This document shows, one piece after another, positions 41,677-63,139 of a stretch of 64,000 nucleotides of DNA. Source of the stretch: a virus; IMG/VR virus record IMGVR_UViG_3300045988_180190, one strand, 5' to 3'. The notes beneath the pieces are model-generated. The model did not search any database and was not told the origin of the DNA. It saw only the letters and a program-made list of their open reading frames with translations. Within the stretch, counting starts at the first letter, position 1, and the number at the start of each line of letters is the position of its first letter. A program made the position numbers and the translations under genes.

Positions 41677-41697
41677 CCCACAAGCTTTAGCTGTGGG
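41677..41697 (+). repeat. IS left-end subterminal hairpin (IP-L)
   Basis: CCCACA-a-GC-TTTA-GC-TGTGGG: 6-bp stem, 1-nt bulge, 2 bp, TTTA loop. Overlaps the tnpA stop codon at 41687-41689. Confidence 0.8.
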
Positions 41698-42139
41698 ATG
41701 ATTTTTGATTAAAATATTTTGATTCATTTTTTTGCTGCTCAATATAAGTTTTTATTGTAGCTTCTCTTAAACACCCGACTGTATCTACATAATATGATCT
41801 AGACCAAAGTGTTGGAAGCTTACGTTTTAATTCTGGAAATTCTGATCTTAAAAATCTTGAGGTGTATCCTTTTATTTGACCGATTATAAATTGTGGTGCA
41901 GACGATGGCTCAGCAGATATAAAGAGATGTACATGATCTGGCATTATTTCTAATGCTTTAATTGTCCAATTCATGGCTTCACATTTTTCTTCAATTAATA
42001 TTTGCAATCTCGTAGAGATTTTATCCGTCAACACAGGTCTTCTAAATTTGGGAGACCATATGAAGTGATAGCTACAATTGAAAACAGCTGTGTTTGAAGT
42101 TTTCCATCTAATTTTTGAAATTTTATTATTGACACTCAT
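41687..42139 (-). CDS. tnpA: IS200/IS605 family Y1 (HUH) transposase TnpA (150 aa)
   Basis: YHFIWSPKFRRPVL, the HUH motif MPDHVHLFIS, and the catalytic-Tyr region LWSRSYYVDTVG. Confidence 0.95.
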   Translation of the reverse strand: MSVNNKISKIRWKTSNTAVFNCSYHFIWSPKFRRPVLTDKISTRLQILIEEKCEAMNWTIKALEIMPDHVHLFISAEPSSAPQFIIGQIKGYTSRFLRSEFPELKRKLPTLWSRSYYVDTVGCLREATIKTYIEQQKNESKYFNQKSSHS

Positions 42140-44797: not shown

Positions 44798-45829
44798 CTA
44801 GCCCCCAGCCTTTGTGCCCTCCGCGAGAGCAATCTGAGGCTTGATTTGTGGGTAAGCATTCATCGCAGCCTCTCCACCACGGAGAACAACCTTGGCAACG
44901 CCTGCGGTGTTAGCAATGAGCATACCTATAACTTCCTCAGCGCAGCAGGATATGCGATCCTTTTCACGCTTTACGTACATTACCGGCTTATAGAGCTCGG
45001 CGCATTTTCCGAGGTAATCTTCTTCCGTAAAGGCCATTATAACATTATCTGGAACAATGTCGGTCTTGAAAGTGGATATCCACTTCATACCGTAAACATT
45101 TGTACCGTCAAATGCCTTTGCACCTTCTTGGAACACCTTGCTAGTTAGGTCAACACCAAATTGGAGGAAGTTGTTATACTTTCCGTTTGTAAGTTGGCTG
45201 AATGTGACCTTGTTGACAAGGTTTACGCCATGGTTAATGCTATGCTTTGTGAAGATATTAACAATCTCGTTCATCACCACTGGTTCCATACCACCAGAGA
45301 AGGTATAGACACCGTTGTTCTGAGCAGCCACGCTATCAGCGAGGTTGTACCATACGAGGTCTTCTGTCTTAACCATGTTCTTTAGACCGGTATCCATTAT
45401 TACCTTGCGGAGGTCGAATGGATAAGTATCAAGTGTAACACGATTCTTTTGGAATTCTGGTGTCGCGATCTTGAAGAAGGTCATTGGAGCCTTGTCTGCT
45501 CTGTAGTACTGTGTATGTGTTCCTTGGTCAAAGGGAAGAACAGCTGCAGGATAGTTTGTGGGCTCAATGTAGAACATAGCTACTGGGTAGTCTGTGTTGA
45601 ACATTGGGACAAGTCTTTTATCACCCGAACCATTAAAGGTTTCAAAATGACATATTTGGCGTGTCCATCCTTTTTCGAATACTTGTTTGCGGATAAATGA
45701 AGTACCTGCGGACGAAGCCATCTTGCAAATACCCTCTCCACAGCTACCTAATTCTTGAACAAGCCTGTCGTTAAGTGCTTCACCTGAAACACCATTTAAG
45801 CTTAAATCTATATCTTTATATTCGTCCAT
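44798..45829 (-). CDS. major capsid protein, HK97-fold / lambda-E-size class (343 aa)
   Basis: Position after the protease, scaffold and decoration-like genes. The approximately 340-aa size, elevated GC and biased codons suggest high expression. A terminator follows directly. General HK97-like pattern, with no residue-level confirmation. Confidence 0.75.
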   Translation of the reverse strand: MDEYKDIDLSLNGVSGEALNDRLVQELGSCGEGICKMASSAGTSFIRKQVFEKGWTRQICHFETFNGSGDKRLVPMFNTDYPVAMFYIEPTNYPAAVLPFDQGTHTQYYRADKAPMTFFKIATPEFQKNRVTLDTYPFDLRKVIMDTGLKNMVKTEDLVWYNLADSVAAQNNGVYTFSGGMEPVVMNEIVNIFTKHSINHGVNLVNKVTFSQLTNGKYNNFLQFGVDLTSKVFQEGAKAFDGTNVYGMKWISTFKTDIVPDNVIMAFTEEDYLGKCAELYKPVMYVKREKDRISCCAEEVIGMLIANTAGVAKVVLRGGEAAMNAYPQIKPQIALAEGTKAGG

Positions 45830-45866
45830 AAAATTTAAATCCTTATTTTAAGTTTACAGGCTAAGA

Positions 45867-46625
45867 CTATGCTACTTGATGATTCCAAGCAGTTTCAAAC
45901 TGCAGCACAGTGCGTGTATCTGACGATTCTGTCCATACGACAGGACCACCAACTACAACGTCATAAGAGCTATCGACCTTACCCATACTGACATTAGCAT
46001 CTCCTGACACATTTACAACACCTGCTGTAACGTAACCTATGATGTCGTCTCCAGCTTCAGCAGGACACACGAGTACAGCGGTAATTGTTGGAGTCTGTGG
46101 ATCTGGTGTAACAATGGTAGCATTTCTAGGACAGTTACCTATAGGCAATGTCACGCTAGGTACCGATTTGGCAGTAAGGGGCATACCTGCAGTATATACT
46201 TTGGTTGCATCGTAGAAAGGAGTCTGAAGCTCGAATTTGTCAAGCGTAGATACCGCCATATTCTTGCCAGATCCATCCCATTCGTCGGAATCCTGGAAAG
46301 CGAAATACACAGGAGTTCCTGTGACGGGAGTTGTGGTCCAACGCCATTCTGCATCTACTAATGTGCCTCCATTTGCAGGAGCAACTTTGCCTTCGTCAAT
46401 AGTGTTGAGAGCGGGAGGTGTAGCACTATATGTGACTTGTACAGGAGCACCGTCAACTGTTAATTTAGCACTCGAAGTCACCCAAAGAGGCTGCCCACTG
46501 TAATATGAAACACCCTCTGCATTAGGTAAAGCACGGGTAAGCTTGCTTACGTCTGTAAGACGGCTACCAGTGTTTACATTAAGTTTGCGTGTAGTACGCT
46601 TATAAAAGCCGATGTTACCAGCCAT
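45867..46625 (-). CDS. head decoration-like / second abundant head protein (252 aa)
   Basis: Lies immediately upstream of the capsid gene, in the position of lambda D. Beta-rich with Thr/Val/Pro/Gly composition, and GC elevated like the capsid gene. Confidence 0.7.
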   Translation of the reverse strand: MAGNIGFYKRTTRKLNVNTGSRLTDVSKLTRALPNAEGVSYYSGQPLWVTSSAKLTVDGAPVQVTYSATPPALNTIDEGKVAPANGGTLVDAEWRWTTTPVTGTPVYFAFQDSDEWDGSGKNMAVSTLDKFELQTPFYDATKVYTAGMPLTAKSVPSVTLPIGNCPRNATIVTPDPQTPTITAVLVCPAEAGDDIIGYVTAGVVNVSGDANVSMGKVDSSYDVVVGGPVVWTESSDTRTVLQFETAWNHQVA

Positions 46626-46648
46626 GTTATTTATTCCTTTTGTTAGTA

Positions 46649-47167
46649 TTAACTAAAATTTTGTCTTTCAAATTCCTCTAGTTCAGCAAGCACTGACTCA
46701 GGAATTTTAGCTTTATTAAAATTCGTGGAAGCGGTTTTTGTAGCAGGCACAAATGATCCACTCATTATATGGTCATTTGAAATTAATGTGTCTGTTACCT
46801 TATCCAATACAGTAAATGCAAGTTTTGGAGAATTTTTTAAAGCCTCTATATTGTATTCTATATCCGAAGAATCAATAAAATTTGACCTCGCTAGTTTTTT
46901 AACTATACCAGTAAGTAGATCCTCATCAACAGATATACTTGCTTGCTTTTCTAAGTTAGACATATTAGAAATCTCAGCCTTTAGCTGCATATTTTCTGCA
47001 ACAGCTTTAGACAAAGCAGAAGAAGCATGCTTAACTGAAGACTCTAATTCTGCAATCTTTGCCTTTTGCTCAGCAATAAATTGCATTGCTTCTTGTACCA
47101 TTGATTGGCATTCAGTAGCAAATTTTTGTAACTCGGAATTATTTATAGTTTGGATGTTTTTTTCCAT
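46649..47167 (-). CDS. scaffold-like coiled-coil protein (172 aa)
   Basis: Heptad-like helical N-half (KIAELESSVKHASSALSKAVAENMQLKAEISNM). Lies between the protease and capsid genes. Confidence 0.7.
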   Translation of the reverse strand: MEKNIQTINNSELQKFATECQSMVQEAMQFIAEQKAKIAELESSVKHASSALSKAVAENMQLKAEISNMSNLEKQASISVDEDLLTGIVKKLARSNFIDSSDIEYNIEALKNSPKLAFTVLDKVTDTLISNDHIMSGSFVPATKTASTNFNKAKIPESVLAELEEFERQNFS

Positions 47168-47205
47168 CGAATTTTAAATTATTAATTATAATAAGATAAT
47201 TTTAT

Positions 47206-47245
47206 AATTATCCGCAAGATAAAAATAACATTCTTGCGGATAATT
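47206..47245. terminator. 13-bp hairpin between the two scaffold-like genes (attenuator or terminator; strand ambiguous)
   Basis: AATTATCCGCAAG (47206-47218) pairs with CTTGCGGATAATT (47233-47245). The T-run (TTTTATTTTTT) follows it on the plus strand, not on the gene-bearing minus strand. Confidence 0.4.
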
Positions 47246-47255
47246 TTTATTTTTT

Positions 47256-48776
47256 CTATCTAGCTATTTCAGCAGCCTCCTTAATGGATTCTTCGAGAAT
47301 AGCGTCGTCGTCAAAATCATCATCCTCGTCATCGTCTTCGTCGTCCTCATCATCTTCATCTTCTGATTCAGAAACTTCTACAACGTGACCATCAGGATCA
47401 TCATTTGCCACAGCGTCTAAAATCAATGCAAGCTTTGCGGAATCATCATCGGTCAACTCTCCGGATTCCACCGCTTCTTCAATCTCTCTTACTATATCAT
47501 CAAGAGACAGCTCTACATCTGCAGTATTCTCCTCTGCAACTTTTGTTGCATATGCTAACTTAATATATTTCTGTGCTAAATCTGCATATTTAGCTGCTGC
47601 TTGTTTAGAGAGCGGTTCGACCACGGTCTGATCTGCTATAGCGTTTGCTTGTGGCTCAGGCACACCTGCTTGTGGGGCTATCGGAGCGGGTGGGACTGCT
47701 GCGGCTTCAGGTGCTGCTGCGCCTTCCTCACTCATAAGGTTCATTACTAATTCCTCCGCAACACGTGGGTCTATTAATCCCTGTTGCACAGCTTGCTCCA
47801 AGAACATTTGTGCCTCTTCGGGTGATAAGAGACTATCATTATCCGTCTGCGCTGCTTCAACTGCCATCTGAGCTAAAATCTGCGCCTGTTCTTGTGTGAT
47901 CTCATTGCTAGCAACCATCTCATCAAGTGCTGTTCCGAATGCGTCTAATCCCTCTATTGTCGGATCCCCTTCTTCTACTGCTGCAGAATCATTAATGTCC
48001 TGAGCATCTAAAGCTCCTTGGGCATAGGCATGTTTTAAAAATTCTTGGTCTCCAAACTGTTCCATATTCTGCCTATGTATCTCAGATGCTCTAAAGTACT
48101 GTGACGCAAGTTTAAATTGTTGCTTTTGTTCTTTCTTTGGGAGTCTGCTTATTGCAGTTAACATTGCAAGACTAGCTAATTTAAGCTGCTGTTCCTCAAG
48201 TTCTGAAGCATACTGTAACTCTTCGAATTGTTGAACTTGTTCGGCGGCATATTTAATTTCATTGAGAGTTGCTAGCTGCATCTGTTTTCCCTTTTCTGAG
48301 TCAATAGCTCTTTGCAGGGCAATCCTTCCTTCCTCTGTGTCAGTAAGAACGCTAGCTACTTTAGCAATAACGTCATAGCTTAAAACTATATCATTTGCAA
48401 TATTGTCGGGGGTAGCAGCAGTTTTTTCTGTTGTAGCTTTCTCCGAAGGTTGAGTATTAATGTTTGCGAACTCTAAAAGTTTCTTTGTAGTATTGGCAGC
48501 TTTCTCGACAATTTTCTTTTCTTTTTCTTCCAATCCACTCCCACCAGATTTAGGGGACATATCAGAAGGCTGAGCTGCGTTTGTTTGGTCGTTCTGCAGT
48601 TGTTCCTTAGGATTTTGTCCAGGGGTGGGATCCACCGTTGACTTTGTGCAAGTAGGTTGAGGGGCTTCTTCGTTCGGGTCTGCAGGTTCCGCAGATTCAG
48701 AAGCGTATTTAGAAGCCTGATTTAATTTATCCATAAGCGCCTTTAAGTTAGCTCTCTTAATAGAATTTTGTTTCAT
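47256..48776 (-). CDS. acidic helical head protein, scaffold/internal-protein-like (506 aa)
   Basis: Gln/Glu/Ala-rich helical sequence with an extreme acidic tail, SESEDEDDEDDEDDDEDDDFDDD. Confidence 0.75.
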   Translation of the reverse strand: MKQNSIKRANLKALMDKLNQASKYASESAEPADPNEEAPQPTCTKSTVDPTPGQNPKEQLQNDQTNAAQPSDMSPKSGGSGLEEKEKKIVEKAANTTKKLLEFANINTQPSEKATTEKTAATPDNIANDIVLSYDVIAKVASVLTDTEEGRIALQRAIDSEKGKQMQLATLNEIKYAAEQVQQFEELQYASELEEQQLKLASLAMLTAISRLPKKEQKQQFKLASQYFRASEIHRQNMEQFGDQEFLKHAYAQGALDAQDINDSAAVEEGDPTIEGLDAFGTALDEMVASNEITQEQAQILAQMAVEAAQTDNDSLLSPEEAQMFLEQAVQQGLIDPRVAEELVMNLMSEEGAAAPEAAAVPPAPIAPQAGVPEPQANAIADQTVVEPLSKQAAAKYADLAQKYIKLAYATKVAEENTADVELSLDDIVREIEEAVESGELTDDDSAKLALILDAVANDDPDGHVVEVSESEDEDDEDDEDDDEDDDFDDDAILEESIKEAAEIAR

Positions 48777-48983
48777 GATTTTAATATATGAATTAATGAC
48801 ATTAATTTATTTTTGACAAAATATTCGTTGGGACGAATACTCATTTAGGTTTTTCCTAAACGATTCCCGCTTCCATAAGGGTGTCTATAAAATTTTTAGT
48901 TTTATAAACCTCACTCCCTCTCCACGAGCGATCACGGCATGTCTTACCGCTAAAATATGTGTTTGATTGTTGAAGATTATAAT

Positions 48984-50624
48984 TTAAATTGCAATACAAT
49001 TTTGAGAAATTGCATCAATTAATACAACTTCTGGCAAGTTTCCGTCATAATGATAGCTTGATATATCTTGTAAAGCAGCTAATTTATAGAAAGCATAAGT
49101 AAATGCCAATTGTTCTGCAATACGCTTATCCTCCTTGCTCAATTCTATTTCTGGATTTAAAGATGCGGTCTTTAATTTAAAAAACTTACCGCAATCCTCT
49201 TTGCGCTCTACGTCAGAAGGCACTCCACCATGAATAATTGTAATTTGTATTATCCTCGGTTGCTTTTTTTCTTCTTTATAAGATAATTTATCTTCTATCT
49301 CATCCATAATTTTTTGGACGGGATCCGTGTTGTTCAGATCGTACATAGCCTCGATAGGATCTCCTGCCTGAAATAAGTCTTCAATACCATCTCCGCAAGG
49401 CATACAACCCCCGGACTCTATAATATCTTTTACTTCTGAAAAAACAGTTGGTATAATAGCTATTTCCGCGTATTTAACTATGTTATCCTTCTGAATCTCA
49501 CTGGCAAATTTTGGGTTGCCATCAAATATTAAATCTACAAATGGTCGGAAAGACAATATGCTAGCTCTCTTCTGAAGCTCGTAAAACAAAGTTTCAGGTC
49601 TCAAATTTTTTAACTCGCTTATATTCTGCTTTGACAAGGTATAATCCTTTTCAAAATTTATATACTTTGCGTTTTTAATATAGATTGACCTTGGGTCTGT
49701 TACTTTATCTGATGAGGCATTGATATCAATAAATTCTTTTTCCAAAGAAGCTAACTTTTTTAGAATATCCGATTTTTGTGAATCGTTAAAATAACTATCA
49801 ATATCACCCCTCTGACGTTCAATACTGGAACCAAACTTTAATAAATCATAACCTAATATCTCAGGGAGTAAGACTGATGGAATGCAGGAGTCATTCTCCC
49901 TAGCAGATTTTAATATAGCGTCCTTATTGGCGTCATTAAATCTATATTCCAGATAATCGGCTATTCTATCTGCAGGTTTCGCTACGATAGATAAGTCAAA
50001 AAAGGTAGGTGTATCATTATGGACATATGCCCATTTATTCACAGGCTTTCCATCCCATTCTTTTATATATTTTCCAGCGAATCTCTTCATCCATGGTTCA
50101 TATTCAGAAGAATTTTTGCAAAGTTTACCAGATATGTTATCTCTATCATGGGGCACACTGCATCCCATACTGCTACTCAATGGCTTTCCACTCAGTGCAG
50201 TTTCATATTCTTGCGCAGCCTTTTTAATGTTTGCCCATGCTACCACCTCTATCCTGTGCATGTCATTATTATAAGCTGCAGCTTTTATGATGCCGATTCT
50301 ATTCTTGGGTGAAGAGGAATTATGTTCTCTAAATAAATTAGCATTGGTTTCAAAAGTCTTATAGTATTTCTCATTAGCTTTCTTTGGGAAACCATCTGCG
50401 TTTTTATTAAATCCATAAGTTTCATCATCACCAATAGCTGTAATGTGTATAAGAAAATGATCTTTGTCAGGTTTGCAATCCTCTAATAGTTGTCTAGATA
50501 TTGCACTAGAAGAAGCCTTCTTAATATTCGTATAGAAGTTAGTGTCTCGAATTACCGAGACCATAACTCCGTCAAGCGATGAAAAAAGCTCAGAATTTGA
50601 GTCAGGGTATACTAACTTTTTCAT
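48984..50624 (-). CDS. prohead protease-like protein with a long C-terminal extension (546 aa)
   Basis: The N-terminal 200 aa fit the HK97-type prohead serine protease pattern: HITAIGDDETYGFNKNADGF...LFREHN...RIGIIKAAAYNNDMHRIEVV...SSSMGCSV. Synteny supports this. The extra approximately 330 aa may be scaffold-like. Confidence 0.7.
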   Translation of the reverse strand: MKKLVYPDSNSELFSSLDGVMVSVIRDTNFYTNIKKASSSAISRQLLEDCKPDKDHFLIHITAIGDDETYGFNKNADGFPKKANEKYYKTFETNANLFREHNSSSPKNRIGIIKAAAYNNDMHRIEVVAWANIKKAAQEYETALSGKPLSSSMGCSVPHDRDNISGKLCKNSSEYEPWMKRFAGKYIKEWDGKPVNKWAYVHNDTPTFFDLSIVAKPADRIADYLEYRFNDANKDAILKSARENDSCIPSVLLPEILGYDLLKFGSSIERQRGDIDSYFNDSQKSDILKKLASLEKEFIDINASSDKVTDPRSIYIKNAKYINFEKDYTLSKQNISELKNLRPETLFYELQKRASILSFRPFVDLIFDGNPKFASEIQKDNIVKYAEIAIIPTVFSEVKDIIESGGCMPCGDGIEDLFQAGDPIEAMYDLNNTDPVQKIMDEIEDKLSYKEEKKQPRIIQITIIHGGVPSDVERKEDCGKFFKLKTASLNPEIELSKEDKRIAEQLAFTYAFYKLAALQDISSYHYDGNLPEVVLIDAISQNCIAI

Positions 50625-50626
50625 AA

Positions 50627-51355
50627 CTAATCTATATTTAATTCCTGCTTTAAGTTATCCCATAACCTCATTCCAGTTAGTCCACCTAGACCAGCAACTG
50701 CTAGACTTGGACTTCTGCGCACAAGCCCATTAATCACTTTATCCGTAGACTTTGGGGCATAAGCCTTGACTTTTGTAAGCAAGTTAGTTAGTTTCTCTGC
50801 AGCTTTGGGTGACTTAGCTTCTATAAAAGATGGTACTTTGAGCTTAGCTAAAACATTAGGGGAACTCTTTTCAAAGGGATTTTTTAGATTAAATCTATTT
50901 GATACATAAGCACCTACACGCTCTCCTGCAAGTGCTCCGCCTCCTCCGGATAGAACCGTACCCCAAGTTGGTATAACTGCATCCAACATTCCGGGATCAT
51001 TCATATCCTTTACAGTGTCTGCTACGTCATCATAATTAACTGGTTTATTATCTTCTAATAATTTTTCAGTTGCAGTAAATGACTCTGGAGAAGTATTCCA
51101 AAGGGTTGAAGCCCCTATTAAACCTGCGGAACCAAGAGCCGCAGCTAATGTAGGCAATAGTGTAGATCTAATTATGCGTTTGCGCCTTGCGGAAGGACTT
51201 TCACCTACACGGCGCTTATTGCTTGCAATATATGCCGCTATACCTCCAGTTCCAATAGTTGCGACTAGAGCGGGTATTAAGTATCTAGATAATGCTTGCT
51301 TACCGTTAGCTCTGAACTCCGGATTATTAACTATAGTTTCTAATAAATTTGGCAT
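50627..51355 (-). CDS. Gly-zipper / multi-helix hydrophobic protein in the head module (242 aa)
   Basis: Four Gly/Ala-rich hydrophobic segments (IPALVATIGTGGIAAYIA; LLPTLAAALGSAGLIGA; WGTVLSGGGGALAG; LAVAGLGGLTG). Confidence 0.7.
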   Translation of the reverse strand: MPNLLETIVNNPEFRANGKQALSRYLIPALVATIGTGGIAAYIASNKRRVGESPSARRKRIIRSTLLPTLAAALGSAGLIGASTLWNTSPESFTATEKLLEDNKPVNYDDVADTVKDMNDPGMLDAVIPTWGTVLSGGGGALAGERVGAYVSNRFNLKNPFEKSSPNVLAKLKVPSFIEAKSPKAAEKLTNLLTKVKAYAPKSTDKVINGLVRRSPSLAVAGLGGLTGMRLWDNLKQELNID

Positions 51356-51359
51356 AAAA

Positions 51360-53468
51360 TTATCCTTGTTTATTCTTACTTATACTATCTAGTAGTTTTA
51401 CAGTATTAAGATCCATTCCACCAAGTTCTGCGCCTTGACGTAAAAATGTTTTTAAAACTGTCTTATTCTTAGTGATATCAGGCATAAAGTCTTTTGCAGC
51501 TTGAAGCATATCAGCCAATTCACGTTTCTGATTAAAGTTTAATTTTGATAACACTGGGTCTGTAATCATTAAGTCGTTGAAGAACTCAGAGGATTTCACT
51601 TTGTTTATCTCATCTATAAGCTTCCCCTCAGTAGGATTAACTGTAGGTTTACTTGAGCTCCATTCCTTATATAGGAACTTATATGGATTTTTGGCCATAC
51701 TAACCGCCACTCCTAGTGCTTTTTCTGCATCAAATGGTGGAAGTTTAGGAAGTGGTGACCCCATAGGTGTCCTTCTAGGAGACGGTTTTTTTGGGGGGTG
51801 TTTTTTTGGGGAAGGATTTGGGTTTTTCTTAGGATCTCCTGGAGAACCGGTATCGGGAGTTGGGGGTAGGGGTGGTGTTGGCGGAGGTGGTGTTGTAAAC
51901 CCGTCTACTGTCCAGGTGTCGGCAGAAGGTAGCATCTGTGGTTGATCTACTTTGGCAAGATCAGTGGAGTGTGGCTCATGGACTAAGCTTCTTGAGTCGT
52001 CCGAAACCGCTGGGAGGTAAAATTCCTCTGGAGAATTTTCTGTATTCTCTGAATTCTCATCTGAGGTGTTTGTATCATCAGAATCACCATTGTGAATATT
52101 TGGGTCTACGTCGTCGTCTGGAATGTTGGGATCGTTTGACTCAATGCCCTGTGATCCAGAAGTATTCGTATTTTTTTCTAGATCTTTTTTTGTCTGATAA
52201 AATTCATTTATGTAATATTTAGGATTACTTTCTTGTAGATAGTCAACCACATAGTCTGGAGCTTCTTTTACAAACTCATTCCAATTACTATCTCCTACTT
52301 CTGGAAGATTCCGCTTGTATTCACCATCCTCAAGTGTTAAATAACCATGCAGTATTAGCCATAAATCCGCTAGATTATCTCGAGTTAAGCCATCTGGAGT
52401 TAAGTCATATGGGTCATTCGAGTCGGTTAGCTTATCGTCTTTGTGGTTTGCATCATCTTCCGAGCCTCCTGACGAACTTGCCGAAGCAAATTTTTGCTGT
52501 AGGGCTGAAGCTACAACACCTAAGTTCGAAAAATTAGTAAAATAGTCTAACAACGAGTTAGCCAAGTCATAAGGCTCATCGGGAGCTAAAAAACTTGCTA
52601 TCTTATGCCTCTCACCCCAAGTATTAGGAAGTTGCTCAGTGAGTATATACTCCCCTAATCCATAAGAATCCGAAAGTACTGACGCTAATTTTACTGCTGC
52701 GTCGTCGAATGTTGTAGATTGAATGTCAAATAAATCTCTTGTATCTTGAACAATCTCAAAGAATTCTTTGTCCCTCAACAGGTTTTGCGGGTTAAAAAAT
52801 TTAGCAAATTTCTTTTCTATGGAACTTAAATTATACCTAAGCTCCTCTTCCAAATCCAGGTAGTCTTGTGTGTCAAATTCCCAATCAGCTACTGTGCTAG
52901 AAGCTATTTTTTGGGTGTATTCTCCATCTACAAGATTATTGTATTGTATAATCTCTGCCTCTGATATTGGATTTGGCTTATACTCATCTTCATATAATTC
53001 GGTAAAGTCGCCTTCAGCCATATGAGAAGACTTGTCGCTCGCAGCCTTACGCATATCTTCTACGTCAAATTCAAAAAATTGGTCATCGCCATTATGTATG
53101 GAATCCTCTAAGAATTTATGCATCGATAAGACATTGGGCATTGAAACCTCAGCATATTTCTTCAAAAGAGATTCTGTGTCTATGGTGCTAAAACTTCTAC
53201 CTCTATCGGACGCAGTTTTAGAAGACGCATAAATACTTTGAGTTTTAAGCGTATTAATAGCTTTTGCTACTGCCCCCAACATTTCAGGAGACATATCATG
53301 TTCTCTTGCAAAATGCAAAAGCTCTTCCTCTGGATGAGAAGCTTTCTTCATTAAAGGAACAAGCTGTTTAACATGTTCGATAACAATTTGTCTATCTAAT
53401 ATTTTTGGATCCATGTCTAAATAACTATACTTTTTATTGGCATTTTGGAAATAATATCCAAAGTCCAA
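51360..53468 (-). CDS. large head-module protein with a Pro-rich basic segment (up to 702 aa; start uncertain)
   Basis: The track start at 53468 is TTG. The first ATG is at 53414 (MDPKILD). Contains TTPPPPTPPLPPTPDTGSPGDPKKNPNPSPKKHPPKKPSPRRTP. Confidence 0.7.
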   Translation of the reverse strand: MDFGYYFQNANKKYSYLDMDPKILDRQIVIEHVKQLVPLMKKASHPEEELLHFAREHDMSPEMLGAVAKAINTLKTQSIYASSKTASDRGRSFSTIDTESLLKKYAEVSMPNVLSMHKFLEDSIHNGDDQFFEFDVEDMRKAASDKSSHMAEGDFTELYEDEYKPNPISEAEIIQYNNLVDGEYTQKIASSTVADWEFDTQDYLDLEEELRYNLSSIEKKFAKFFNPQNLLRDKEFFEIVQDTRDLFDIQSTTFDDAAVKLASVLSDSYGLGEYILTEQLPNTWGERHKIASFLAPDEPYDLANSLLDYFTNFSNLGVVASALQQKFASASSSGGSEDDANHKDDKLTDSNDPYDLTPDGLTRDNLADLWLILHGYLTLEDGEYKRNLPEVGDSNWNEFVKEAPDYVVDYLQESNPKYYINEFYQTKKDLEKNTNTSGSQGIESNDPNIPDDDVDPNIHNGDSDDTNTSDENSENTENSPEEFYLPAVSDDSRSLVHEPHSTDLAKVDQPQMLPSADTWTVDGFTTPPPPTPPLPPTPDTGSPGDPKKNPNPSPKKHPPKKPSPRRTPMGSPLPKLPPFDAEKALGVAVSMAKNPYKFLYKEWSSSKPTVNPTEGKLIDEINKVKSSEFFNDLMITDPVLSKLNFNQKRELADMLQAAKDFMPDITKNKTVLKTFLRQGAELGGMDLNTVKLLDSISKNKQG

Positions 53469-53546
53469 GCAAATTAATTTACTTCTTTTGATACCCTCTC
53501 AAAAAAACATTTAAATTGCAATAAAATTTAACAAACAAAAATCAAT

Positions 53547-54449
53547 TTAACTTTTAGAACTTTCATATTTGGACATCTCAAGTTCCGTTATCGCGTCCAA
53601 TTTCTCTTGTATCTCTGGTCCTTTTATATCATGTATAGCATCCCATATTGACTCCCCAAGAGATCCAAGTCCTTCTGTGTCTGCATTTGCAGTGTCGGTT
53701 CCTCCTTGTTTTGCAGCAATTAATAGCCCCTTTGCGGAAGAAATGCTGTTGTGTCTTTGGTTTATATATCCATTGCGTACTAAGAAATGGGCATTAGCCA
53801 TTATTGCAGCCTCGAGCTGAGAAGCAGATACAGCTGCGAACTTTTCGTTTAATACATTATTAGCCATTTTTAACCCAGCAAAATAAGCAGCGTCCTCTAA
53901 TCCATTATTATACGCGGACCTTAAGATTAATGTACCAAATGATTCTGTTTTAGCGTAGTTATCATCCATTTCCACAAGTCTAGTTTGCGGATACACATGG
54001 TTAGCTATGAACAAAGACTCATTTTTTCTATCTCTAATATTGTAAAATATTTGTTCATAACATCTTAATGAATCCTCACTAATACCTGTAATGGAAGATA
54101 GCTTAGAGAATGGCGTATCCGTAATAAGAAATGCCCTAATTGTTTCCTCCATTGTATGACTGGAAGGATGATGTAACCCTAATGCAAAAATTAAATAGTC
54201 ATTCGTTGCGTCACCAAACTTTTCAAAATTATATAAATCTCTTAAATAAGTTTCATGCACTGCAGAAGGTAACCTAATGTTATCCCTAATTAAAGCTTTT
54301 ATAAACCTATACCCAAATGATAAATCTTTATACGCGCACATAAACTTATTCACAGCGGTAACTTGCCGCGTGAAATTAAGCACCTCTCTAAAATAAGACG
54401 AGGTATCGGGTAAATAATCTATTAATTCTCGTATGCGCTCAAAAGTCAT
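53547..54449 (-). CDS. hypothetical head-module protein (300 aa)
   Basis: Start moved to the ATG at 54449-54447 (MTFERIR), since the track start is TTG inside a hairpin. Confidence 0.7.
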   Translation of the reverse strand: MTFERIRELIDYLPDTSSYFREVLNFTRQVTAVNKFMCAYKDLSFGYRFIKALIRDNIRLPSAVHETYLRDLYNFEKFGDATNDYLIFALGLHHPSSHTMEETIRAFLITDTPFSKLSSITGISEDSLRCYEQIFYNIRDRKNESLFIANHVYPQTRLVEMDDNYAKTESFGTLILRSAYNNGLEDAAYFAGLKMANNVLNEKFAAVSASQLEAAIMANAHFLVRNGYINQRHNSISSAKGLLIAAKQGGTDTANADTEGLGSLGESIWDAIHDIKGPEIQEKLDAITELEMSKYESSKS

Positions 54450-54460
54450 AATTATTACAA

Positions 54461-54486
54461 TTACGCCCAAGTTGTCTTGGGCGTAA
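54461..54486 (-). terminator. 11-bp hairpin after the 810-aa gene (partial terminator or RNA-stability element)
   Basis: TTACGCCCAAG (54461-54471) pairs with CTTGGGCGTAA (54476-54486) around a TTGT loop. It lies only 11 nt upstream of the next ATG, so it is unlikely to be a full stop. It shares the core TACGCCCAAG/TGGGCGTA with the capsid terminator. Confidence 0.45.
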
Positions 54487-54498
54487 AGAGGATAACTT

Positions 54499-56931
54499 TT
54501 ATATCTTATTTGTTGTATTGGTAGATATCCCCGAGGTTTTTTGGATTAAGTCCAGCGTTAATTCGGATAGCTGTCTAAAGCAAGCCAGCACTGAATTCTC
54601 TAACCCTTTGATATCGTCACTTCCATAGTATTTTACGAAGTTTTGAGGACTTATTATTATTAGGAATAACAGTCTTGCCAACTTATCCATTCCATCTCTA
54701 AGAGAAGGAAGGAAATCGTTTATATACATCTGGGCGTCAGACACCTGAGATAATACGCTTACAATACCATGTTCAAATACACTACGCTGTCCACTTCTCT
54801 GGGCAAACTCCGCAAGCATATTTGGAGTAGCTGTCTGTAAGAAGTCGCTTGGGTCTTCTCTTGATACACCTTCGGTATTAGAAGCCGCTTCCATAAGAGT
54901 TGGAGTCATCATATCACCGTATCTTGGAGCTGGAGGTGCGTAGGACGTTTCATCCGTCATCAGTGCCCTTGTTTCTGGTATTTCATATGGTATATTTAAG
55001 TCTGAGTCAAAACCCTCAAAGAAATCTGGATCTGGATTTAAAATAATTCTATCCGCAAATTTCTTAAATAGGAATTTATAATCCTCACCGCGTTTTTGGC
55101 TATCATTTGCATGCTTAATTATATAATCGGCAGTTTCTTCGGAAATATTTACATTCCCCATAAGCAACGCCATAGCACCCATTACATTTACGTTTGCAAA
55201 TTTAAATCCTGCTATGTTTAAGTTATAACTGCCATCACCATTGTAATTGACATATCCATGTCCTACGCTGGAATGCTTGACCAAAGTATTGGCATATAAA
55301 GTTGACCAGTTACCGGGAACCCAATCTGCCTGAACTATTCCGATATTATAATCACTTTTCTTAAAGGAATACAGATTATTTATATCAAAATGTTTCTTCA
55401 TATCTCCAGCGAGATCTTTGTATTCAATTGGAAGTTCTATCCAACGCACACTGGGTAAAAATACCTTTAAATCATAAATCGGATATTGAGCAGACGGATT
55501 TACTTGTATAATCTCATCTGTTCCAAACACTTGTGTTCTCCAAGGCGAGAAATCATCATATCCATATGCTGGATATGCCTTTACGGTATATCCACCTGGT
55601 GAGTCTGCGTTATCTTTTACTTCTCCAATATAAAATGCTTCATCTGATATATAGCAATATTCCGGATCCCATATGCCATAGATCTTACCTGCTTCTGGCT
55701 TGACTTTTAGAACTTTTGATAAGTCTTCCTCCTTTTTATCATTATCTTTTTCCTCTATCGCTAAAATATTCCTAAAGTTACCAATAACAGGATCATGAAA
55801 CCCTGGAGCTTTAACATTTTCATCCTCTTGATTATATAATTCTTTAGGACTGTTAATATCATGATACTGAATTATTCCTTTACGTTCCGGATCTATCGAA
55901 ACTAAAAGGGCTGGAGTTTTCCCATAATCTGAGTTTCCCACAATAGCAACACACCTAACCGTAGACCCGTCAGTAGTTAAAATATCGTAAACAGACGGAG
56001 CGTTGGTAGAAATGCCTGCCCAATTCTGATCTGGATCTGCATCATAGATCATATTAAGCTGGTCTTCATCTCGATTATCTTCAAAAGAATATCCCTTCGT
56101 AATTTGCTCGGCTGCTGTCTTAACGGCATTCTTATTAAAAATACCTTTATGTAAGACTAATAAATTTTTCGGCTTTGCTGCTTCAGATGCCTTTTTCACT
56201 TGGAGAGCCCTTGCTTCTTCAAGCACGTCCATTGGAATATAATCAGATTCGTCACAAAGCCCCACTACGTTATTTGCAAATTCTTTATCAGATTTTAAAG
56301 CCTCTGCAAGTTTGTTCCATGCGTCTATTCCAGCGGATTTTAAAAATTTGTGTAATGGGCTATAATCTACATCCTTTGACTCCACAAATGTGTTAAATAC
56401 AGAATCATACATTGAAGTAAACGAAGAAAAATCGTCTTGATCCGTATCTGATAGATTTAGTTCTGAAGCAAACTTCTTAAGTGAAGAGGTTTTATAAAGC
56501 GGTGTGGCAATACGCATCATTTCAATGTCCTGCTTCCCTTGATTTGCTAGAGACATGTCCACAGCAGTACCATCTCCACTTTCTTCATAGAGTCCTATAA
56601 AATAATTACACCAATCAGGATTAAGGTACACGAACTTCTTTTCGTCTACATTATATAAAAATTCTGTTCCCTTTACTTGCCCGTTTACATAGAATACTGG
56701 GGCATATAGAATATGTTTATTTACTCTAAATACGTAAATTCCCACCATCTTTGTGAAAGCGTCATTTGTCTTGACAATCTCAAAACCAAGATAGTAGTCA
56801 TTTGTAAAAAATGGAGAAGCCTTATCTTCCATTACGGTTGATGAAGCTCTATAAAAAGCTATTTCAGCATCTGTTTCTTTAAGAGCAGAAGACGCAGCCT
56901 TCTTGAAATCATAGTCTTTTAAGGATATCAT
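54499..56931 (-). CDS. large virion protein (810 aa); portal candidate by size and position only
   Basis: Largest ORF upstream of the protease in the head block. No portal motif recognised. Confidence 0.75.
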   Translation of the reverse strand: MISLKDYDFKKAASSALKETDAEIAFYRASSTVMEDKASPFFTNDYYLGFEIVKTNDAFTKMVGIYVFRVNKHILYAPVFYVNGQVKGTEFLYNVDEKKFVYLNPDWCNYFIGLYEESGDGTAVDMSLANQGKQDIEMMRIATPLYKTSSLKKFASELNLSDTDQDDFSSFTSMYDSVFNTFVESKDVDYSPLHKFLKSAGIDAWNKLAEALKSDKEFANNVVGLCDESDYIPMDVLEEARALQVKKASEAAKPKNLLVLHKGIFNKNAVKTAAEQITKGYSFEDNRDEDQLNMIYDADPDQNWAGISTNAPSVYDILTTDGSTVRCVAIVGNSDYGKTPALLVSIDPERKGIIQYHDINSPKELYNQEDENVKAPGFHDPVIGNFRNILAIEEKDNDKKEEDLSKVLKVKPEAGKIYGIWDPEYCYISDEAFYIGEVKDNADSPGGYTVKAYPAYGYDDFSPWRTQVFGTDEIIQVNPSAQYPIYDLKVFLPSVRWIELPIEYKDLAGDMKKHFDINNLYSFKKSDYNIGIVQADWVPGNWSTLYANTLVKHSSVGHGYVNYNGDGSYNLNIAGFKFANVNVMGAMALLMGNVNISEETADYIIKHANDSQKRGEDYKFLFKKFADRIILNPDPDFFEGFDSDLNIPYEIPETRALMTDETSYAPPAPRYGDMMTPTLMEAASNTEGVSREDPSDFLQTATPNMLAEFAQRSGQRSVFEHGIVSVLSQVSDAQMYINDFLPSLRDGMDKLARLLFLIIISPQNFVKYYGSDDIKGLENSVLACFRQLSELTLDLIQKTSGISTNTTNKI

Positions 56932-58485: not shown

Positions 58486-60762
58486 CTAAAATCTACCTGT
58501 TTTATCTACGTTTTCCGCAAAATCTGGCATAGACATTCTAACGAACGGGTCTATATTGTCTTTAATATTTGTCTTATAACCTCTTACCGCAGATTCTACA
58601 TAATTTTTAGCCTGGTAAGGAGCATTTGCTCTTTCCAAGAAATCTGTATTTCCCTTATTGGGAACCTCTCTAAGTCTAACATACACAGGAGAAAAACCTG
58701 GTTCATTATCCGAAACATAAAGCTCATCTGTAATACCCGTGCGCTTAATATGGTCCAGCATCTTATTTGTAAGTTTTGTTCCTATTGTGTAATGTAATAC
58801 TGGGGCTTGCAAGTATTTGCCTTTTAAATTAACATTTTTATCATTGAGCTTTACTTTTTTTGCATCTTTGTCCGGTACATAAGAAGCCTCTAAAGCATTA
58901 TAAGATACTATATCGCCAGGTAAGTAATCTCCTAATCCATCTGGATCGGTAATTTCTACCTTATCTACGATACCTCTAGCTAGGACTTCTAAATTTCTTT
59001 TATGCGCCGGTGCGTTACTATCGTCCAGTAGCTGTTTTCCCGTTTCCACGAAAACTCTCCTACCTTCCCCGAGTCCTCTTAGGCGTACAACGTCCTCTAA
59101 GTCTACTAAACCATCTGCTAGCTGGTCTCCCTGCTCGACTTCTTGACCTTCTTTAACTTCTATGTGAGAATCCGGGTCAGCATAATGCTCTATTCCATTA
59201 ACAACTATATAAGTTCCACCTTGAGGAGCTGGTGTTATTCTTTCCACTCTCCCATCTGATTCTGCTAGAGGGGCACGAGATTTATAGTGCTCTGGAGATT
59301 CAAAAAACTGGTTAATATAATTAAATCCCGAAAAGGTTCTCTTCTTTCCTTTGAATCCCCCAGCTTCGTGTTTTGAAGAATTATGTGACAAGAGACCATT
59401 TTTTAATACGAATAAATGTGTATCTCCACTAATTTCTATGTCAAAACAATGCTGCAATCCTACATAGCGAATCTGTGTAATCTTCGCAGGGTCACCCCTT
59501 ACGTCTAAACATAAATTTGAGTCAAATATTTCTTGCACTGGAAGGTCTTTTAATTCTCCGTATATTTTAAATCTATGTTGTCTAGTACAAACAACAGAAT
59601 ACTCTATATCATCAACAGAAAATATAACCTCATATACATTGCGAATATTCTGGTCTATAACAGAAATGATTTCCTCAGGAACTAGTGACTTACCATCTTT
59701 AGAGATACTTATTACCTTCTCCCCTGGTTTTAAATCCTTAATTTTTTTAAACTGCTGTGACCATAGCATAACTTCTGTATCTTGATGCAAGCATAGTCCG
59801 CCCTGAATAGCAGGCTCACTAACAGAAGTTGCCGCTGCAATTCCTGCATGGAACTCTCCAATTCTAGGCAATCTTTTATTGTAATCCAATCCAAAAGCTT
59901 CTGCAGAAATACCTTCGGGAGAAACTGTGGCAATTGGAGAATGCACTATCACAGTTTTTACACCTTTATTTTTAAGAGAATTTAGTACGTCACGATCAAC
60001 TATGGTTCCCTCAGCAAATCCTCCCGCCGGACGCGCAAGCACTCGTCCGTAAAGTGATGAGTCGTCTATGTCTAAGTCTATACCATTATTGGAAAGATCT
60101 TTTTTAGACGTAATCATCATATTTGCCACTGGGCGAAATAAACTTTTACCCCAACCTCCAAATTTAGCTGTACTTTTTTTGATAGCGATAGTTGAAGCTC
60201 TTGTACCATAAGTGCTAGCTAAATATTCTGGAATGGATAATCCTTCTCCAAAACTTTTCTTAACAAAGAAAGGAATCGTTCTACCCTTATAATCTGTATA
60301 GAGTGCTGGAGTTGTAATTAAAGCTTTTAACTGAAAGGGAGAACCTCTTGCTCCAGAGGATACAGAGTTATAAAGATTATTATGCTTTTCTTTAGCAGCA
60401 TTCAGTGTATCTTTCTCAAGCTTTGTAGCATAACGTTCGTATACCTCCATTATAGCTTTGTTCTTTTTGTTTTCATCTTTTATATTCCTCCTTAAAAACT
60501 GCACCTCTTTATGCATTTCTTCCAGTGCAGCTTCCTTATCAAATGGAGGTTTAAAATCCGAAAGTTTCAAAGTCTGTCCAGAGTAGTATACTGATTTACG
60601 AGCAATATCCATTAATTTATCCATTATATCCCTGTATCTGTCTGGATATTTTTCAGCAATAAGAGACTGCAACTCGTTTATTGACTTCGTGTCATATGTG
60701 CGAGTGTAGTCCCTTATATCCTCGGGTAAAACGGAATTAATTAAATATTGAATAGCTTTCAC
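58486..60762 (-). CDS. DNA-directed RNA polymerase beta-prime subunit, C-terminal half (phage multisubunit-RNAP type), interrupted by a mini-intein (758 aa precursor, about 620 aa spliced)
   Basis: Collinear with bacterial RpoC from SGARGS onward. Matching segments: SGARGSPFQLKAL; FGEGLSIPEYLASTYGTRAS (bridge-helix region); LYGRVLA; GEFHAGIAAATSVSEPAIQGGL[intein]SSKHEAGG (trigger loop, compare [28 protein letters not shown]); APLAESDGRV; VKEGQEVEQGDQLADG; KRNLEVLARG. The start codon is GTG (60762-60760). Confidence 0.85.
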   Translation of the reverse strand: MKAIQYLINSVLPEDIRDYTRTYDTKSINELQSLIAEKYPDRYRDIMDKLMDIARKSVYYSGQTLKLSDFKPPFDKEAALEEMHKEVQFLRRNIKDENKKNKAIMEVYERYATKLEKDTLNAAKEKHNNLYNSVSSGARGSPFQLKALITTPALYTDYKGRTIPFFVKKSFGEGLSIPEYLASTYGTRASTIAIKKSTAKFGGWGKSLFRPVANMMITSKKDLSNNGIDLDIDDSSLYGRVLARPAGGFAEGTIVDRDVLNSLKNKGVKTVIVHSPIATVSPEGISAEAFGLDYNKRLPRIGEFHAGIAAATSVSEPAIQGGLCLHQDTEVMLWSQQFKKIKDLKPGEKVISISKDGKSLVPEEIISVIDQNIRNVYEVIFSVDDIEYSVVCTRQHRFKIYGELKDLPVQEIFDSNLCLDVRGDPAKITQIRYVGLQHCFDIEISGDTHLFVLKNGLLSHNSSKHEAGGFKGKKRTFSGFNYINQFFESPEHYKSRAPLAESDGRVERITPAPQGGTYIVVNGIEHYADPDSHIEVKEGQEVEQGDQLADGLVDLEDVVRLRGLGEGRRVFVETGKQLLDDSNAPAHKRNLEVLARGIVDKVEITDPDGLGDYLPGDIVSYNALEASYVPDKDAKKVKLNDKNVNLKGKYLQAPVLHYTIGTKLTNKMLDHIKRTGITDELYVSDNEPGFSPVYVRLREVPNKGNTDFLERANAPYQAKNYVESAVRGYKTNIKDNIDPFVRMSMPDFAENVDKTGRF
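59380..59793 (-). mobile_element. mini-intein (138 aa, Hint domain only, no homing endonuclease) in the beta-prime trigger loop
   Basis: Cys1 (TGC, 59793-59791) in block A CLHQDTEV. Block B VCTRQHRF (TxxH). Block F CFDIEISGDTHLFVL. Block G NGLLSHN, with terminal His-Asn (Asn 59382-59380) followed by Ser+1 (59379-59377). Removing it restores the RpoC trigger-loop consensus. Confidence 0.85.
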
Positions 60763-61498: not shown

Positions 61499-62170
61499 CT
61501 ATTTAATAAGTTTTGCGTCAAGAATTCTTGCGGTTAAAGCCTTCTGCAGTGCTTGTATCTGCGTAAGAGCCTTAGCGTTTTTCTCTTGAAGCAATAGCAC
61601 GCCTTCTATCTTATTGCATATGGACTTAGCGTCACTCGGGTTTTCCAAAGCTAGCAAGTTACTTGCAAAGAATTTAAATACTTCACCATCTTTCCAATAC
61701 AAATCCGAAAAAGCTTCTGCAGGTGCTGTTAGGAAATAGGAAAAATCTTTCATTGCATATGCAATGTTCCCCTGCTGAGATATTTTCAGCTTATTTCCTT
61801 CTAGAATCCATCCGCCACTCTTTAAGTTGGCATAGAATGTTGGGTCTTGTGCGTCTTTTTCCCTAATAAATGTCTCGGGATGCAAGCAGCACAAAGTCCA
61901 GTCTGAACCCGTTAGCTTTAAGCCTGCACAATATGTGATGCAAAACATTTCACGTGAAGCATCATATACTTGTTTCTTTGCTTCATCCGAACTCTTGTAA
62001 GATTCCCAAGCAGCTTTTAGGTCGTCACCATTTGATTGGGTAAACTTAACTGTGTCTTCCCAACTTGTTGAGAATGCCGATTTAAACTCAGCCTTTAGTT
62101 CTTCTAATGATTTAGCATTTGCAGCTAAACAAACGAAGCAAGCGGTAATAGCTATAATAATTTTTTTCAT
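61499..62170 (-). CDS. secreted or lipoprotein-like protein (223 aa)
   Basis: N-terminus MKKIIIAITACFVCLAANAKS: a signal peptide with a possible lipobox ITAC, or an ANA-K cleavage site. Confidence 0.7.
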   Translation of the reverse strand: MKKIIIAITACFVCLAANAKSLEELKAEFKSAFSTSWEDTVKFTQSNGDDLKAAWESYKSSDEAKKQVYDASREMFCITYCAGLKLTGSDWTLCCLHPETFIREKDAQDPTFYANLKSGGWILEGNKLKISQQGNIAYAMKDFSYFLTAPAEAFSDLYWKDGEVFKFFASNLLALENPSDAKSICNKIEGVLLLQEKNAKALTQIQALQKALTARILDAKLIK

Positions 62171-62171
62171 G

Positions 62172-62456
62172 TTAGTTCCTATCTGTTATTAATGATTTAA
62201 TTTCTTCTAAAATATAAATTTTTTTAAAGCCTATAGCTTTATCATAATCCTGCCATTTGTACCAGATAAAAGTATTTGGGTACACATCAAATCGCTTCTT
62301 CCAAAACTCTAGTGGTAGCGATTGCTCGTACTTAAAAGTGAGCATATCATCTGCATAATCTATGAGATCGTTTAACTTATAAATATCATAATCAGGCGTT
62401 GAACCTAACAAGTATGCAAATGGCATACATAATATGCATAGTAATTTCTTTATCAT
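62172..62456 (-). CDS. small signal-peptide protein (94 aa)
   Basis: N-terminus MIKKLLCILCMPFAYLLGS. The ATG overlaps the upstream TGA (ATGA at 62453-62456). Confidence 0.65.
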   Translation of the reverse strand: MIKKLLCILCMPFAYLLGSTPDYDIYKLNDLIDYADDMLTFKYEQSLPLEFWKKRFDVYPNTFIWYKWQDYDKAIGFKKIYILEEIKSLITDRN

Positions 62457-63139
62457 AATTTAACCTTTGAATCTCCGTAGTATGTTGGAAGTATAGAAAT
62501 CCATCTCTTTACACCACTCGGTAGTAGCTCAGCTTTAGACATATTTTGTCTCCATACTATTATAGTGTTATTAGGATCTGTAAAGATTTCTCTTATATAA
62601 TCTCCTCTTTTTAATCTTCTTGTTGTAGAGTAGCGCCCAAAACCTGTGTAAACCGGGACATTAACAATGTCGGTAGCATCCACTGAAGGATAAAACCAAA
62701 CTCCTGTTGCAGTGTTGGAACCTAGAGAAGCTCCAATAGAACCGGTTGCGTAATTCGAAAATTGTACCCGTTGCCCAAAACACCTGTTGTAATCCCCGCT
62801 ACCTGAAGTAGAGAAATAGTATATTGTAGGACTTGAGTCTGTAATATTGGAGTGTCCATTTATATAGGTAGAGTATTGAAGTGAGAATGTTGCGGAGAAA
62901 TACAAAGTATTTCTATACTGGTCTATGACTTTAATCTCAAAATCCGAACAATATTTAGAGTCCGAATAAGGTGAAGGACTCATATCCACATATATGTAGA
63001 AATCCCTATATATTTTATTAACACTTGGTGACTTACCAGTTGTTGTATCATATACAAAGGGTTTAGTAGCCGAGTGCAGAGCTAGACTACAAAAGGCCAT
63101 TAAACCTAGAAAATATAATTTTTTAATACTTAAAAACAT
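62453..63139 (-). CDS. secreted beta-rich protein (228 aa)
   Basis: N-terminus MFLSIKKLYFLGLMAFCSLALHSATKP (signal peptide). Tyr/Ser/Thr-rich mature part. AGGAA RBS. Confidence 0.7.
   Translation of the reverse strand: MFLSIKKLYFLGLMAFCSLALHSATKPFVYDTTTGKSPSVNKIYRDFYIYVDMSPSPYSDSKYCSDFEIKVIDQYRNTLYFSATFSLQYSTYINGHSNITDSSPTIYYFSTSGSGDYNRCFGQRVQFSNYATGSIGASLGSNTATGVWFYPSVDATDIVNVPVYTGFGRYSTTRRLKRGDYIREIFTDPNNTIIVWRQNMSKAELLPSGVKRWISILPTYYGDSKVKL

Follow-up and report, generated by a model that had tools for sequence, protein, structure and literature searches.

A probable class-1 mini-intein in the trigger loop of a phage RNA polymerase β′ subunit

The polymerase gene and the position of its insert

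We analyzed a 64,000-nucleotide (nt) stretch of viral DNA, IMG/VR record IMGVR_UViG_3300045988_180190 (here, the window), which carries a minus-strand gene for the C-terminal half of the β′ subunit of a multisubunit RNA polymerase. Its reading frame is interrupted in the trigger loop by an insert of 138 amino acids (aa). This insert is very likely a class-1 mini-intein that can still splice, left over from a LAGLIDADG homing intein whose endonuclease was lost; it lies in the first trigger helix and is best read as a selfish passenger rather than a regulator. A preliminary description of this DNA had proposed an endonuclease-less mini-intein interrupting the β′ trigger loop, and sequence, fold, and an empty-site allele bear that proposal out. 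A homolog search found 282 proteins, the best 120 of which by score were listed as P0001 to P0120; one of them, P0004, lacks the insert and served as a reference for the uninterrupted protein. The features of the locus are as follows, with residues of the insert counted from its first Cys.

58486..60762, minus strand: precursor gene, RNA polymerase β′ C-terminal half; 758 aa, GTG start, the predicted intein being residues 324-461
59794..60762, minus strand: N-extein, aa 1-323; Leu323 is invariant in 46 intein-less homologs
60127..60234, minus strand: bridge-helix region, approximately aa 177-212, uninterrupted here; placed from the bacterial bridge-helix alignment and the AlphaFold (AF2) model of P0004
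59794..59817, minus strand: EPAIQGGL, first half of the trigger-loop motif and end of the N-extein
59380..59793, minus strand: predicted class-1 mini-intein, 138 aa, 15.9 kDa, without a homing-endonuclease domain
59791..59793, minus strand: Cys1, predicted block A nucleophile for the N-S acyl shift; invariant in 15/15 aligned mini-inteins and 46/46 family inteins
59575..59586, minus strand: block B, T70-R-Q-H73 (TxxH); H73 invariant, T70 conserved at ≥90%
59488..59562, minus strand: intein residues 78-102, a linker of ~25 aa at the position of the ~270-aa LAGLIDADG domain of full-length relatives
59410..59448, minus strand: block F, C116-F-D118-I-E-I-S-G-D-T-H126-L-F; C116, D118, L127, and F128 invariant; aligns to NpuDnaE YDIGVERDHNF
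59380..59385, minus strand: block G, His137-Asn138, the terminal Asn for cyclization; N138 invariant
59368..59379, minus strand: SSKH, first residues of the C-extein, with Ser462 as the predicted +1 nucleophile and His465 as the equivalent of trigger-loop H936
58489..59379, minus strand: C-extein, aa 462-758; in the second HMMER domain, residues 467-625 align to β′ 1010-1169 of 8dy7_D

The 758-aa open reading frame (ORF) matched the NCBIfam rpoC model TIGR02386 at E 1.3e-44 over model positions 555-1066, with a score under the full-length equivalog cut-off, as expected for half a protein. When the protein was compared with the Protein Data Bank (PDB) by phmmer, it matched dozens of bacterial β′ chains, the best at E 1.2e-24, and each of these matches fell into two domains, which stopped at query residue 320 and restarted at residue 467, so that the insert was skipped. 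The AlphaFold model of P0004, with a predicted local distance difference test score (pLDDT) of 86.5, matched bacterial β′ in Foldseek (E 2e-24; TMq 0.66-0.69). It contained a long helix at 177-212, corresponding to the bridge helix, and a helix at 306-327, a low-confidence tip, and a helix at 342-350, corresponding to the trigger helices. With a bridge helix, a trigger loop bearing the catalytic His, and the β′ fold, the gene product is the C-terminal half of a multisubunit RNA polymerase β′ subunit. For annotation, the gene would be entered as coding for a 620-aa subunit of the polymerase and an intein of 138 aa; GenBank DAF78906.1, a close relative from a Caudoviricetes metagenome-assembled genome (MAG), is named β′ only.

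The trigger-loop motif of the phage family, EPxxQxxLxxKH, aligned without gaps to that of Escherichia coli, the two being of the same length, and its E, P, Q, L, K, and H were invariant or nearly so among the 120 homologs, with K and H invariant in 120/120. Since Q320 aligned with E. coli β′ Q929 (phmmer against PDB), the insertion junction corresponds to M932|R933: Leu323 is the equivalent of M932, Ser462, the +1 residue, occupies the position of R933, and His465 is the equivalent of H936. In the AF2 model of P0004, the 323|324 junction lies inside helix 306-327, the first of the trigger helices, with four residues of that helix still to follow. The preliminary description had put the insertion at GEPGTQLT|MRTFHxGG; the trigger loop was the correct element, but the real junction is one residue further downstream, within the first trigger helix.

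The boundaries of the insert could be set exactly. On the minus strand, 59380..59793 encodes 138 aa beginning CLHQDTEV and ending KNGLLSHN, between the flanks ...SVSEPAIQGGL and SSKHEAGG.... A plus-strand reading of the same interval gave a translation full of stops and was rejected; the coordinates proposed earlier are exact, and the strand is minus. P0004 (619 aa, 77% identical to the window protein) contains an uninterrupted QGGLSSKH, that is, an empty site, and its contig, L001, is syntenic with the window, including the same 201-aa upstream gene. Alignment of the window with L001 at the DNA level revealed a single clean in-frame gap of 414 nt whose ends coincide with 59380..59793, so that comparison with an intein-less homolog, which had been suggested as a check, confirmed the insertion point. 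The G+C content was 33.1% in the insert versus 38.3% in the exteins.

Identity of the insert and the putative splicing reaction

The conservation of the insert was assessed in an alignment of the query with 14 related mini-inteins taken from the homologs. Residues C1, H73, C116, D118, L127, F128, L130, and N138 were invariant across these 15 sequences and T70 was nearly so, while Ser was found at +1 in 13/13 inteins of the window insertion site. The motifs picked out in the preliminary description are present and can be assigned to intein blocks, TRQH being block B (residues 70-73), DTHLFVL lying in block F, and LLSHN representing block G, with Ser following directly. When searched against PDB with phmmer, the insert matched the fused NpuDnaE mini-intein (E 4.6e-8, its C-terminal 36 residues aligned), a halophilic DnaE intein (E 1.9e-6), and the Spl DnaX mini-intein, the matches ranging from E 4.6e-8 to 7.5e-6. 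Its AlphaFold model was all-beta, with a pLDDT of 95.1 and a predicted template modeling (TM) score, pTM, of 0.87. The top 50 Foldseek matches of this model in PDB were all HINT-fold proteins, nearly all of them inteins, with TM scores up to 0.86; they included NpuDnaE (E 8.7e-9, TM 0.84), Ssp DnaB (TM 0.85), and Mtu RecA (TM 0.81).

A Pfam scan of the 138-aa insert gave no LAGLIDADG or HNH match. In BLASTP comparisons, the insert aligned to inteins of 370 to 400 aa in two pieces, residues 1 to ~78 and ~103 to 138, and the ~270 aa between the aligned ends of the longer inteins constitute a LAGLIDADG domain. Two homologs, P0025 and P0033, carry 381-aa inteins at exactly the window site, and that of P0025 matched PF14528 (LAGLIDADG_3) at E 3.3e-16.

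Several observations weigh against this identification. The Pfam Hint model PF01079 matched at E 1.3e-5 with 25.3 bits against a cut-off of 29.7, and the NCBIfam models intein_Cterm and intein_Nterm (TIGR01443, TIGR01445) scored 14.4 versus 15.6 and 14.7 versus 24.5, respectively. The hidden Markov model (HMM) search for inteins that had been suggested earlier therefore produced matches at the right places but none that reached a curated cut-off; we read these scores as divergence of the sequence rather than as a contrary result. The query block F, ISGDTH, also deviates from the family consensus VDHPDH. A third point concerns the polymerase, since the trigger loop of E. coli tolerates a large insertion, SI3; this insertion is located at the loop tip, not inside the helix that contacts the nucleoside triphosphate (NTP). 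An assignment to class 3 inteins (WCT) was considered and rejected: Cys1 is present, Asp118 fills position F:4, and F:2 is where the conserved Cys116 falls.

From the conserved residues, the fold, and the selection described below, we infer that the 758-aa precursor undergoes protein splicing, and the conserved residues suggest that it would follow the canonical class-1 pathway. An 85-kDa precursor would be translated first. Cys1 would carry out an N-S acyl shift at Leu323-Cys324, helped by Thr70 and His73 of block B, and the resulting thioester would be attacked by Ser462 at +1 to give a branched intermediate. Cyclization of Asn138, assisted by His137 and by Asp118 and His126 of block F, would then free the 15.9-kDa intein, and an O-N shift would yield a 69-kDa subunit with contiguous EPAIQGGL-SSKH, in which the tryptic junction peptide would be IGEFHAGIAAATSVSEPAIQGGLSSK. 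By calculation, the precursor weighs 85.0 kDa, the spliced subunit 69.1 kDa, and the intein 15.9 kDa; the first two values agree with earlier estimates of about 86 and 70 kDa.

Splicing would be obligatory for an active enzyme, since only the spliced protein should be able to fold the trigger helices, and it is most likely constitutive. The unspliced precursor is very probably inactive because the insert breaks the helix that carries the equivalents of M932, R933, and H936; since the E. coli trigger loop accommodates SI3, we infer this inactivity rather than assert it. The same reasoning has been applied earlier to RPB2 inteins (PMC1635734).

Intein sites, selection, and exchange in the phage family

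At least one intein was found in 58 of the 120 listed homologs, a share that is not an unbiased frequency because the homologs were ranked by score, and the inteins occupy a series of closely spaced sites. Counting along the trigger-loop motif, we found an intein after residue 3 (EPI|TQ) in at least eight members, after residue 5 in one member, after residue 8, the window site, in 13 members, after residue 9 (LN|TKH) in 20 members, which makes this the commonest site in the phage family, and after residue 12 (KH|TGG) in about five. P0030 and P0068 are probable further site-3 members that were miscalled by the boundary script. The bridge helix contains at least three more sites, GARKSVL|STK, SVISTK|S(S/A)TAK, and TAKGGDL|SKQ. 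The inteins at sites 8, 9, and 12 have near-identical C-terminal blocks, C[FYW]D[IL]xV[DE]HxDxLFVLxNGLIxxN, whereas by the same blocks the site-3 inteins are a separate type. At the position of Cys116 (59446..59448), two places ahead of the block F Asp, the inteins of sites 8, 9, and 12 invariably have Cys, and those of site 3 have Thr. Another Cys, Cys69 (59587..59589), directly precedes the block B Thr in 12/15 aligned mini-inteins.

Eleven of the 13 site-8 inteins, including the query, are mini-inteins of 116 to 162 aa, and the spread in their sizes suggests that the endonuclease was lost repeatedly or in steps. In the family as a whole, alleles may be intein-free or may carry a mini-intein, a full-length LAGLIDADG intein, or several inteins, up to three per gene. 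With at least five sites within ten residues, the trigger loop, together with the bridge helix, forms an unusually dense and polymorphic intein hot-spot.

One triple-intein allele came from a contig binned as bacterial. The 2.4-kb contig L005 (CAYOFO010000091.1, 1..2359), assigned to an "uncultured Gammaproteobacteria" MAG bin, is a fragment of a phage β′ gene with three inteins, the first in the bridge helix and the others at site 3 and site 9, the last two being separated by TQGALN alone. It is probably a phage contig misbinned into a bacterial MAG.

The distribution of alleles bears on whether the element has a regulatory role. The preliminary description had suggested that splicing might serve as a post-translational control point, a suggestion that found no support: the existence of intein-free relatives with the same gene order argues that the element is dispensable rather than a required regulator. 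The recombination tract around the intein in a sister lineage (see below) likewise speaks against such a role. It is conceivable, though improbable, that the intein is conditional, with splicing gated by redox state, temperature, or assembly so as to time the production or packaging of a virion polymerase. Cys1, the invariant Cys116, and the Cys that precedes the block B Thr in 12/15 relatives could serve a redox switch, the host protein is a probable virion component (see below), and the mycobacterial DnaB intein provides a stress-responsive precedent (PMC6195587). However, sister lineages with the same gene order, represented by P0004, are intein-free, other lineages have inteins at different adjacent sites and up to three of them per gene, and no extein Cys is close to the junction. 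Patchy presence and shifting sites point to a selfish element and away from a conserved regulator. A more specific version, in which the endonuclease-less intein has been co-opted as a splicing checkpoint so that only spliced β′ is assembled and packaged, possibly under redox control through Cys1, Cys69, and Cys116, we consider slightly less probable still.

We computed the ratio of nonsynonymous to synonymous substitution rates (dN/dS) between two sister-clade alleles, those of contigs L002 and L006. For the intein, dN/dS was 0.19 at an unsaturated dS of 0.71, compared with 0.04 to 0.06 for the exteins; the intein is therefore under constraint, although a looser one than that on the polymerase. 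The value of 0.19 indicates that selection on the polymerase keeps the intein able to splice, and for splicing itself it is indirect support. In the ≥90% identity cluster of the window, which has 37 members on contigs of up to 170 kb, 15/15 listed members are 758 aa long, and the intein varies at only 4 of its 138 positions.

These data also speak to the possibility that the intein has decayed and no longer splices, being kept as a permanent insertion or marking an inactivated gene. Its endonuclease is already gone, its block F sequence is atypical, and it has changed faster than the exteins, the inteins of the window and P0002 being 51% identical in amino acid sequence as against ~80% for the whole protein. 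We nevertheless regard decay as very unlikely, since all catalytic residues are intact and conserved, the dN/dS is 0.19, the reading frame is unbroken in all 15 members listed for the window cluster and in the listed 758-aa members of the P0002 cluster, and the insertion lies inside the NTP-contacting trigger helix, beside the invariant L323, K464, and H465.

Scarcely credible is a lineage-specific polymerase insertion like SI3, a type that the E. coli trigger loop is well known to host, or a HINT domain of the bacterial intein-like (BIL) or Hedgehog type that cleaves without ligation, such domains being found in the Foldseek list too at lower or similar rank: the insert is internal, a precise in-frame indel absent from close relatives, it has Cys1, TxxH, HN, and the Ser+1 nucleophile, it is located in an invariant catalytic motif and not in a variable region, relatives at the same site carry homing endonucleases, and cleavage without ligation would break an essential helix. 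The preliminary description had named a conserved 138-aa insertion without splicing residues as the case that would speak against an intein; what we found is an insert with these residues and close relatives without the insert.

The mini-intein seems to have moved between related phages. L002 and L006 are 95 to 100% identical over most of 8 kb (L002 7001..15277, L006 1..8277), but identity drops to 77 to 81% in the intein and to 86 to 92% in ~150 nt upstream and ~700 nt downstream of it. Judged from the alignment, this drop has the appearance of a recombination tract centered on an endonuclease-less intein, similar to the tracts produced by co-conversion; another member, P0152, is mosaic in part. 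The preliminary description had regarded the intein as fixed and no longer homing. The loss of the endonuclease and the constant length within its own cluster agree with this, but the intein-free sisters and the recombination tract in the sister clade do not; "fixed" is limited to the window lineage, because the element and its flanks appear to be exchanged among related phages and intein-free relatives persist.

Phage context and comparison with known inteins

All long ORFs of the window are on the minus strand except a TnpB gene. We found no tRNAs in the window, and a local HMM built from the mini-intein alignment detected no second intein there. Pfam and PHROGs scans of 20 neighboring and large ORFs returned little beyond a major-capsid-like protein, DUF2345 (a weak, subthreshold match at E 1e-5), and TnpB. 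These scans revealed no other polymerase subunit in the window, and an NADFDGD-type motif was absent from all of its frames; the other subunits are therefore expected elsewhere in the genome.

Downstream of the β′C gene, on the minus strand at 44798..56931, the window carries genes for an 810-aa protein, a 546-aa protein, and the major capsid protein, the last supported by a major-capsid PHROG match. Together with β′C, they follow the order of gp216, gp218, gp222, and gp226 in Salmonella phage Arash (phmmer E 3e-6 to 7e-28). Related genomes are ~165 to 174 kb, and by this synteny the uncultured phage, of ~170 kb, appears tied to a group with a virion-associated multisubunit polymerase. Purified Arash virions contain the β′ homolog Gp216 and the β subunit Gp206 among their most abundant proteins (PMC10585845). 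The window β′ is 27% identical to Gp216, and this similarity and the synteny make packaging of the window polymerase into virions, a possibility raised in the preliminary description, plausible by analogy.

Other neighboring genes deserve mention. An IS200/IS605-type pair lies inside the structural gene module, beside the capsid region: the product of 41687..42139 (minus strand) has an N terminus resembling a Y1 transposase (TnpA), and 42175..43233 (plus strand) encodes TnpB, with a Cas12f1-like TNB domain (E 1.8e-17). The intein-less contig L001 has a similar pair at another position, 6355..8036. Just upstream of the polymerase gene, the ORFs at 61499..62170 and 62453..63139 (both minus strand) have N termini like those of signal peptides or lipoproteins, MKKIIIAITACFVCLAANA... 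and MFLSIKKLYFLGLMAFCSLALHS..., respectively; ORFs with such N termini are unusual beside a polymerase subunit gene. Just past the upper end of the window, on contig L007 (3069..5903) of the same phage, genes for a GNAT acetyltransferase and a papain-like Peptidase_C1 are found 4 to 7 kb upstream of the β′ gene, and they are conserved in L001, L002, and L003.

Among solved structures, the closest counterparts of the window intein are the class-1 mini-inteins NpuDnaE (fused; 4KL5/4KL6/2KEQ), Ssp DnaB (1MI8), gp41-1 (6QAZ), and the Mtu RecA splicing domain (2IN0). Like these, it is in the range of ~130 to 150 aa, has the HINT fold (TM 0.77 to 0.85), Cys1, TxxH, the block F Asp, and a terminal (H)N, and lacks an endonuclease. 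It differs in being only 20 to 25% identical to them, in residing in a phage RNA polymerase subunit rather than a replication protein, in being contiguous and not split, and in its invariant Cys two positions ahead of the block F Asp. A tblastn search with the intein of 50,697 deposited phage genome records found no similar intein.

The E. coli β′ trigger loop likewise houses a large inserted domain, SI3. This sandwich-barrel-hybrid domain sits at the tip of the loop and stays in the protein permanently, whereas the window insert combines a HINT fold with splice residues and is lacking in close relatives. In 185,579 bacterial and archaeal species genomes, the motif GEPGTQxTxR followed directly by Cys had zero matches; these genomes thus yielded no Cys1 intein behind the canonical motif at R933|T934, which is one residue downstream of the window junction and equivalent to the commonest site of the phage family. 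The sole match of an intein-profile scan of the same genomes was the triple-intein phage gene copy on L005. Canonical bacterial enzymes with LTMRTFH could not host an intein at the window site, since Arg occupies +1, where Ser is needed.

Inteins in homologs of β′ are known from archaea, and those of the archaeal largest subunits mostly are full-length and contain endonucleases. They include Mja rPol A′, Mja rPol A″, and Nph rPol A″ (PMC1635734), and 14 cases of COG0086 inteins have been counted in Euryarchaeota (PMC4760082); largest-subunit inteins have also been reported in Anaeramoeba and giant viruses (PMC10710043). The likeness to the window intein is that the host is a β′ homolog, A″ being the part that carries the trigger loop. 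The archaeal examples are cellular, unlike the window intein, and they are compared here by host protein. Inteins of the second-largest subunit, those in RPB2, RPA2, RPC2, and giant-virus RPB2 (PMC1635734) and those of Anaeramoeba (PMC10710043), interrupt a different subunit in eukaryotic or giant-virus hosts and mostly contain endonucleases. The window intein shares with them the occurrence of several nonallelic sites in conserved motifs near the active site and the argument that splicing must precede assembly. Our search of open-access papers turned up none that connects natural inteins to the trigger loop or the bridge helix, and literature searches for inteins together with jumbo phages or rPol A returned no description of the window element.

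The window intein is a well-understood kind of element in a new host protein and, as far as the genomes and papers covered here show, at a new site, and it extends the host range of inteins to a phage multisubunit RNA polymerase. As a 138-aa intein with Cys1 and Ser+1 from a mesophilic, probably human-associated phage, it is a candidate tool for protein engineering. The alleles of the family (intein-free, mini, full-length, and double or triple) lend themselves to work on site switching, on how the endonuclease is lost, and on interference between adjacent inteins. No new mechanism is revealed. The main value of the system lies in its dense, polymorphic hot-spot in a phage polymerase family. 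In this respect it is comparable to the haloarchaeal MCM inteins, in which four neighboring sites have been described (PMC10643990): in both cases, the sites are packed into one conserved motif and are polymorphic for intein presence. Unlike the MCM inteins, those of the phage family belong to uncultured phages and occupy at least five sites within ten trigger-loop residues, together with at least three more in the bridge helix.

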